From Escherichia phage Pu-Krd-SF3, in the sequence record PQ249397: a stretch of DNA of 64,000 bases. One strand, given 5' to 3'. A program made the position numbers and the translations under genes. Position 1 is the first letter of the stretch. Every line of letters starts with the position of its first letter. Of this stretch, positions 53,658 through 53,669 are shown piece by piece. The notes beneath the pieces were generated by a model. That model did not search any database. It saw only the letters and a list, made by a program, of their open reading frames with translations, and was not told the origin of the DNA.

Positions 53658-53669
53658 TATTTATAAATA
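53658..53669. promoter_or_regulatory. overlapping divergent late promoters (gene 51 leftward, gene 26 rightward)
   Basis: TATTTATAAATA: plus TATAAATA at 53662-53669 and minus TATAAATA (plus tatttata) at 53658-53665, in the 50-bp divergent intergenic region. Confidence 0.5.

Follow-up and report, generated by a model that had tools for sequence, protein, structure and literature searches.

Organization of the gene 51/26 junction

The window, by which we mean the whole 64-kb stretch of Escherichia phage Pu-Krd-SF3 DNA that was analysed (64,000 nucleotides), contains genes 51 and 26 in divergent orientation. Gene 51 starts at position 53640 on the minus strand and gene 26 at position 53691 on the plus strand, leaving a gap of exactly 50 bp (53641-53690) between them. 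In the T4 reference and in the record of phage Pu-Krd-SF4, the gene order is 28, 27 and 51 on the minus strand, followed by 26, 25 and uvsY on the plus strand. Inside the gap lies a perfect 12-bp palindrome, TATTTATAAATA, which is present in a single copy in the 64-kb window and can be read as TATAAATA on both strands (Table 1). The two boxes have four bases in common (TATA, 53662-53665). The sequence-only reading had already noted the palindrome, the length of the gap and the late consensus on both strands with its 4-bp overlap; all its coordinates were right and the two boxes were confirmed by the sequence.

Late promoters of T4 are defined by TATAAATA at -13 to -6 (PMC1524935), and this rule, applied to both boxes, gave the predicted starts listed in Table 1. 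These are spaced 23 bp apart and point outward, and the predicted transcripts do not overlap. The boxes overlap through their upstream ends (-13 to -10), so that the arrangement is back-to-back and not face-to-face as had been described from the sequence. The predicted messengers of genes 51 and 26 begin 1-5 nt ahead of their ribosome-binding sites, and in this way 50 bp accommodate both promoters with their ribosome-binding sites and leaders. The two ribosome-binding sites mirror each other exactly, forming an 8-nt inverted repeat with 100% complementarity. From the T4 gene order, we assume that the hub genes 29, 48 and 54 also lie downstream of gene 51 under P51.

Table 1. Features of the gene 51/26 junction and of a comparable T4 junction. 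Positions refer to the window, except in the last row; predicted starts derive from box geometry.
Feature	Position	Strand	Support or remarks
Gene 51, baseplate hub assembly protein, 249 aa	52891-53640	-	PF12322, E 4e-55
Gene 26, baseplate hub protein or chaperone, 208 aa	53691-54317	+	PF12322, E 9e-64
Imperfect dyad of 48 bp with the palindrome at its centre; two 24-nt arms without spacer, 71% complementary	53640-53687		
12-bp palindrome TATTTATAAATA, two overlapping late-promoter boxes	53658-53669		Identical in T4
P51 box TATAAATA (-13 to -6), for gene 51 and the downstream hub genes 27 and 28	53658-53665	-	M77695.1 TATA_box
P26 box TATAAATA (-13 to -6), for genes 26-25, probably on into uvsY	53662-53669	+	M77695.1 TATA_box
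Predicted P51 start, A, six bases past the box; 12-nt leader	53652	-	Box geometry
Predicted P26 start, A, six bases past the box; 16-nt leader	53675	+	Box geometry
Gene 51 ribosome-binding site AAAGGAGC	53645-53652	-	Exact mirror of the gene 26 site
Gene 26 ribosome-binding site AAAGGAGC	53678-53685	+	M77695.1 marks 791-794 (window 53681-53684)
Second TATA-like box GATAAATA, one mismatch	53671-53678	+	M77695.1 TATA_box 781-788 for protein 26
Third TATA-like box TATGAATA, in the first codons of gene 26	53694-53701	+	M77695.1 TATA_box 804-811
T4 gene 4/53 locus	27337-27385 (NC_000866.4 77337-77385)		Plus box 27349-27356, minus box 27364-27371

Identity with the T4 late promoters P51 and P26

Around the site, 1.6 kb of the window match the equally numbered positions of Escherichia phage Pu-Krd-SF4 (PQ759884.1) with 100% identity, and about 500 phages of the T4 genus show 95-100% identity over this stretch. 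The 50-bp gap corresponds base for base to positions 116429-116478 of T4 (NC_000866.4), window positions being obtained by subtracting the T4 coordinate from 170119. By this conversion, the predicted starts at 53652 (minus strand) and 53675 (plus strand) are equivalent to NC_000866.4 positions 116467 (plus strand) and 116444 (minus strand), respectively. Genes, orientation, box positions and the 4-bp overlap are the same as at P51/P26 of T4, and the element itself does not differ in any way. The T4 GenBank record M77695.1, which spans genes 51, 26, 25 and uvsY, carries a TATA_box for protein 51 at 768-774 (window 53658-53664) and a TATA_box for protein 26 at 772-779 (window 53662-53669). No other small annotated T4 record covering gene 51 was present among the matches listed. 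Overlapping divergent promoters in the base plate gene cluster were reportedly mapped by Scarlato, Storlazzi, Gargano and Cascino in 1989, in Virology.

The same T4 record annotates two further TATA-like boxes ahead of or within the beginning of gene 26 (Table 1). The GATAAATA box is confined to the T4 genus and absent in the other genera compared, and we doubt that it is used, since a start six bases beyond it would land within the ribosome-binding site. As working promoters of gene 26, both GATAAATA and TATGAATA are considered doubtful, neither of them being conserved beyond the T4 genus.

T4 late promoters have an AT-rich stretch between box and start and do not need a -35 element, and about 50 such sites have been listed (PMC2988020). 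At the 51/26 junction, the box-to-start segments are TGATAA and GAATAA, with 5/6 A/T each, and on both strands we found a perfect TATAAATA box and an AT-rich segment with no -35 element. A search for sigma-70-like promoters (-35/-10 pairs) detected none in the 50-bp gap, and the regional count was below the expectation from shuffles. Each box is closely followed by a late gene that has a strong ribosome-binding site; the predicted leaders of 12 nt (gene 51) and 16 nt (gene 26) compare with 10-18 nt in the majority of relatives. Of the late transcription factors, the co-activator gp33 has its gene in the window (20561-20899; phrog_254, E 2e-32), while genes 55 and 45 presumably lie beyond it, as expected from the T4 gene order.

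Taken as a whole, the palindrome is almost certainly the P51/P26 pair of T4, that is, two consensus late promoters dependent on gp55, gp33 and gp45, placed on opposite strands, with the upstream ends of their -10-like boxes sharing 4 bp. The proposal of two T4-type late promoters on one palindromic element, made before any database search, is thus supported by the identity with T4 and by the TATA boxes of M77695.1. Judging from its sequence, the element is an identical copy of one already known and annotated in T4. What is new here is comparative and incremental: the exact register is deeply conserved, and alternative registers are found elsewhere.

Occurrence and conservation of the palindrome

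The expected number of copies of the 12-mer is 0.08 per window, and at least one copy was found in 8 of 100 dinucleotide-preserving shuffles. The TATAAATA box is present 12 times in the window, against 8.6 expected in DNA with 64% A+T. Taken singly, neither the count of the 12-mer nor that of TATAAATA is significant. Ten of the 12 boxes are located outside long ORFs, mostly 12-30 nt upstream of an ORF on the same strand that has a ribosome-binding site, and this placement outside long ORFs has a binomial P of 3e-6 to 1e-4.

To follow the element among relatives, we sampled 45 related loci from GenBank phages and IMG/VR. In 42 of them, the gap separating divergent genes 51 and 26 contains the exact 12-mer, in 24 distinct 72-nt contexts (the window included) that belong to eight genera: Tequatrovirus, Karamvirus, Mosigvirus, Jiaodavirus, Marfavirus, Gaprivervirus, Muldoonvirus and Lazarusvirus. 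Across these genera the identity of gp26 goes down to about 40% and the flanks diverge; at the positions adjoining the 12-mer, the majority base reaches a frequency of only 30-50%. In a MAFFT alignment that was not anchored on the motif, the invariant or nearly invariant columns coincided with 8 of the 12 positions of the palindrome, both start codons and a single G of a ribosome-binding site. Over the eight genera, no variation was seen in the outer halves of the 12-mer (53658-53661 and 53666-53669), with variable bases next to them. The placement of the boxes, the conservation at this junction and the alignment columns show that the 12-mer is clearly beyond chance.

Three other perfect late boxes of the window deserve mention. 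The box at 22081-22088 (plus strand) lies inside a 210-aa ORF (21551-22183) and is followed, about 140 nt downstream, by a 302-aa ORF that we take from its sequence to be gene 32. The 210-aa ORF would be, by its position, the endonuclease gene segG. Promoters of gene 32 have been reported within segG (PMC2988022), and the late box inside the 210-aa ORF fits these reports. The box at 33539-33546 (minus strand) is antisense to the ORF at 32958-34082 (plus strand), with no ORF on its own strand nearby, and could either be fortuitous or mark an antisense late start. Lastly, the box at 57469-57476 (minus strand) precedes a 503-aa ORF of the uvsW region. This region contains two ORFs on the minus strand, of 503 aa (55928-57439) and about 80 aa (55672-55914), as it does in the annotation of Pu-Krd-SF4; RefSeq T4 (NC_000866.4) has a single uvsW of 587 aa, and the record notes sequence discrepancies.

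Variant junctions and alternative readings of the symmetry

In the lineages whose 51/26 junction lacks the exact 12-mer, late-type boxes are still present, one per strand, with the exception of Krischvirus. In Aeromonas phages 25 (locus positions 1163-1172) and 44RR2.8t.2 (locus positions 871-880) we found a 10-bp palindrome, TATTTAAATA, composed of one-mismatch boxes, TTTAAATA, that overlap by 6 bp. Krischvirus GEC-3S has TATTTATAAAATA (locus positions 1154-1166), in which an extra base disrupts the box of gene 26, that of gene 51 being intact; ACTAAATA, located just downstream, may serve gene 26 instead. In Morganella phage vB_MmoM_MP1 the junction contains TATAAATATTTATA (locus positions 1179-1192), an inverse palindrome with the boxes swapped, face-to-face and with 2 bp in common, and the predicted 5' ends of the two transcripts overlap by 14 nt.

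A comparable pair is found within T4 itself, at the junction of genes 4 and 53. There, two divergent late genes are likewise separated by a short gap, of 47 bp, with two perfect TATAAATA boxes on opposite strands. These boxes (NC_000866.4 77349-77371) are truly face-to-face, with the plus box on the left and 7 bp between them, and the 5' ends of the predicted transcripts share about 5 nt, whereas at 51/26 there is no such overlap.

The variant junctions bear on two other ways of explaining the symmetry. The first is that only one box works, the palindrome being a by-product of the self-complementary TATA core, and that the other gene is transcribed from elsewhere. This would agree with the fact that TATAAATA is half self-complementary, with the only modest improbability of the 12-mer in a window of this size and with the caution that activity in vivo has been verified for fewer than all of the 50 T4 late sites listed (PMC2988020). 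However, a by-product would hardly account for both outer halves being invariant over eight genera while the adjacent bases vary. Moreover, there is no other perfect box on the appropriate strand ahead of gene 51 or gene 26, the variant lineages keep a late-type box for each strand (in Krischvirus only the gene 51 box is perfect), and M77695.1 annotates both boxes. We consider it extremely improbable that a single box is at work.

The second is that the dyad is kept mainly as the operator of a dimeric protein that regulates both hub operons, such as T4 DsbA or another small late regulator. A perfect two-fold symmetry of 12 bp within an imperfect dyad of 48 bp is what such an operator could look like, and DsbA has been reported on A/T-rich sites overlapping two late promoters (PMC2988020). 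Nevertheless, the symmetry is fully explained by two overlapping consensus boxes, DsbA binds with low affinity and its gene is non-essential (PMC2988020), and the registers of 10, 13 and 14 bp in other lineages preserve the boxes without any common operator sequence. An operator as the main reason for the dyad is therefore very unlikely, and two overlapping late promoters remain the reading that we follow below.

Genes 51 and 26 as paralogs

PF12322 is matched by gp51 and gp26 along their entire length, and each of the two also has a match to phrog_150. A pairwise comparison of the two proteins gave 20% identity over 161 residues (E 1e-5). On the evidence of these matches, gp51 and gp26 are paralogs, encoded head-to-head around a palindromic promoter with mirrored ribosome-binding sites. 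Their grouping has already been made by Pfam; a literature search for an explicit statement of gp26/gp51 paralogy returned nothing relevant. The annotation of gene 26 differs between records: in M77695.1, protein 26 is annotated only as the C-terminal 80 aa (record positions 1188-1427), and RefSeq T4 lists a gene 26 of 208 aa, an ORF that the window shares, together with 26', an in-frame product from within it.

The mirror-image layout of genes 51 and 26 suggests an old duplication followed by an inversion. In RB43-like phages, in contrast to the mirror-image pair described here, gene 51 and the 26-like paralog are arranged in direct tandem, in the order 54, 51, 26-like and 25, all on one strand (Klebsiella phage RCIP0006, locus positions 901-2195; Enterobacter phage phi5, locus positions 901-2194). 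No TATAAATA was found in the 2.5-kb loci of these two phages. This tandem layout without TATAAATA indicates that the divergent palindrome arrangement is not universal. In Aeh1 and in a cyanophage, gene 26 has no divergent neighbour.

RNA folding of the extended dyad

The symmetry of the junction extends beyond the palindrome and the mirrored ribosome-binding sites to a dyad of 48 bp (Table 1), and an RNA role for it, additional to that of the promoters, was also considered. RNA reading through the junction would form a hairpin that blocks translation of gene 26, and the transcript from P26 would escape it. A putative read-through RNA (53636-53696) folds at -14.3 kcal/mol (z = -3.0), and in this fold the AAAGGAGC ribosome-binding site of gene 26 is paired, its partner being the complement of the corresponding site of gene 51. 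Transcripts from P26, predicted to start at 53675 and inside the hairpin, would lack the 5' arm. There is a precedent in T4 gene e and I-TevI (PMC3014915), and all T4 early and middle transcripts run in the direction of gene 26 (PMC2988020). On the other hand, any two mirrored ribosome-binding sites yield a stem of this kind, and outside the T4 genus the fold does not consistently surpass that of shuffles (z about 0 to -2.6). Such a role is unlikely in our opinion, even as an addition to the promoters. As the main cause of the dyad, a cruciform or RNA hairpin was rejected, the fold being good in the T4 genus and inconsistent in other genera.

A model for divergent late transcription from one element

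Returning to the two late promoters, structural data allow their possible relationship to be described. [quoted passage not shown] Since gp55 recognizes flipped-out non-template bases, each strand of the palindrome would be read separately. P26, with its box at 53662-53669, would start near 53675 and drive genes 26 and 25, probably reading into uvsY; P51, with its box at 53665-53658, would start near 53652 and drive gene 51 and the hub genes downstream. The predicted melted regions extend over 53663-53676 for P26 and 53651-53664 for P51, with two base pairs in common (53663-53664).

It had also been suggested from the sequence that a single site nucleates late transcription in both directions. 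This mechanism seems unlikely, given that gp55 would read each non-template strand on its own and that the predicted melted regions overlap. The coupling of hub gene expression that was suggested along with it would be limited, on present evidence, to a shared late timing. The DNA upstream of each complex, contacted by gp33 and the clamp, would cover the opposite promoter. With open complexes that overlap and upstream parts that lie over the other promoter, one polymerase would exclude the other, and we infer that the site accommodates only one polymerase at any moment, oriented either way. A given orientation of the clamp activates only one promoter polarity, so that P26 and P51 would be fed by oppositely oriented clamps.

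Bacterial bidirectional promoters offer a parallel. In these, a pseudo-symmetric -10 element engages polymerase either way, the binding of one excludes the other, and the preferred spacings between divergent starts are 18, 10 and 23 bp (PMC12825309; Warman, Grainger). The 51/26 element resembles them in that the elements in -10 position on opposite strands have bases in common; its starts, as predicted from box geometry, would be 23 bp apart. It differs from them in depending on a phage sigma, gp55, with gp33 and the gp45 clamp instead of sigma-70, in the lack of a -35 element, in having an 8-bp box of which both copies are perfect consensus, and in an activation that would depend on clamp orientation. 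By analogy, the element would work like a bidirectional promoter, yet it belongs to the phage late class.

Implications for the expression of the hub genes

The 51/26 gap is a clean, natural and minimal module for two-way expression, with two promoters, ribosome-binding sites and leaders in 50 bp, and the junction lends itself to testing how polymerases compete and how late activation depends on clamp orientation. A more speculative idea, to which we give a low but not negligible probability, is that the back-to-back register itself (4-bp overlap, 23-bp start spacing) was selected, forcing the two hub operons, each headed by one of the paralogs, into mutually exclusive use according to clamp orientation. 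If so, this forced choice would set the ratio of the hub operons or damp the noise of their expression, possibly assisted by the negative supercoiling behind the departing polymerase. A register under selection would also explain why the 12-mer is invariant in at least eight genera amid surroundings that drift.
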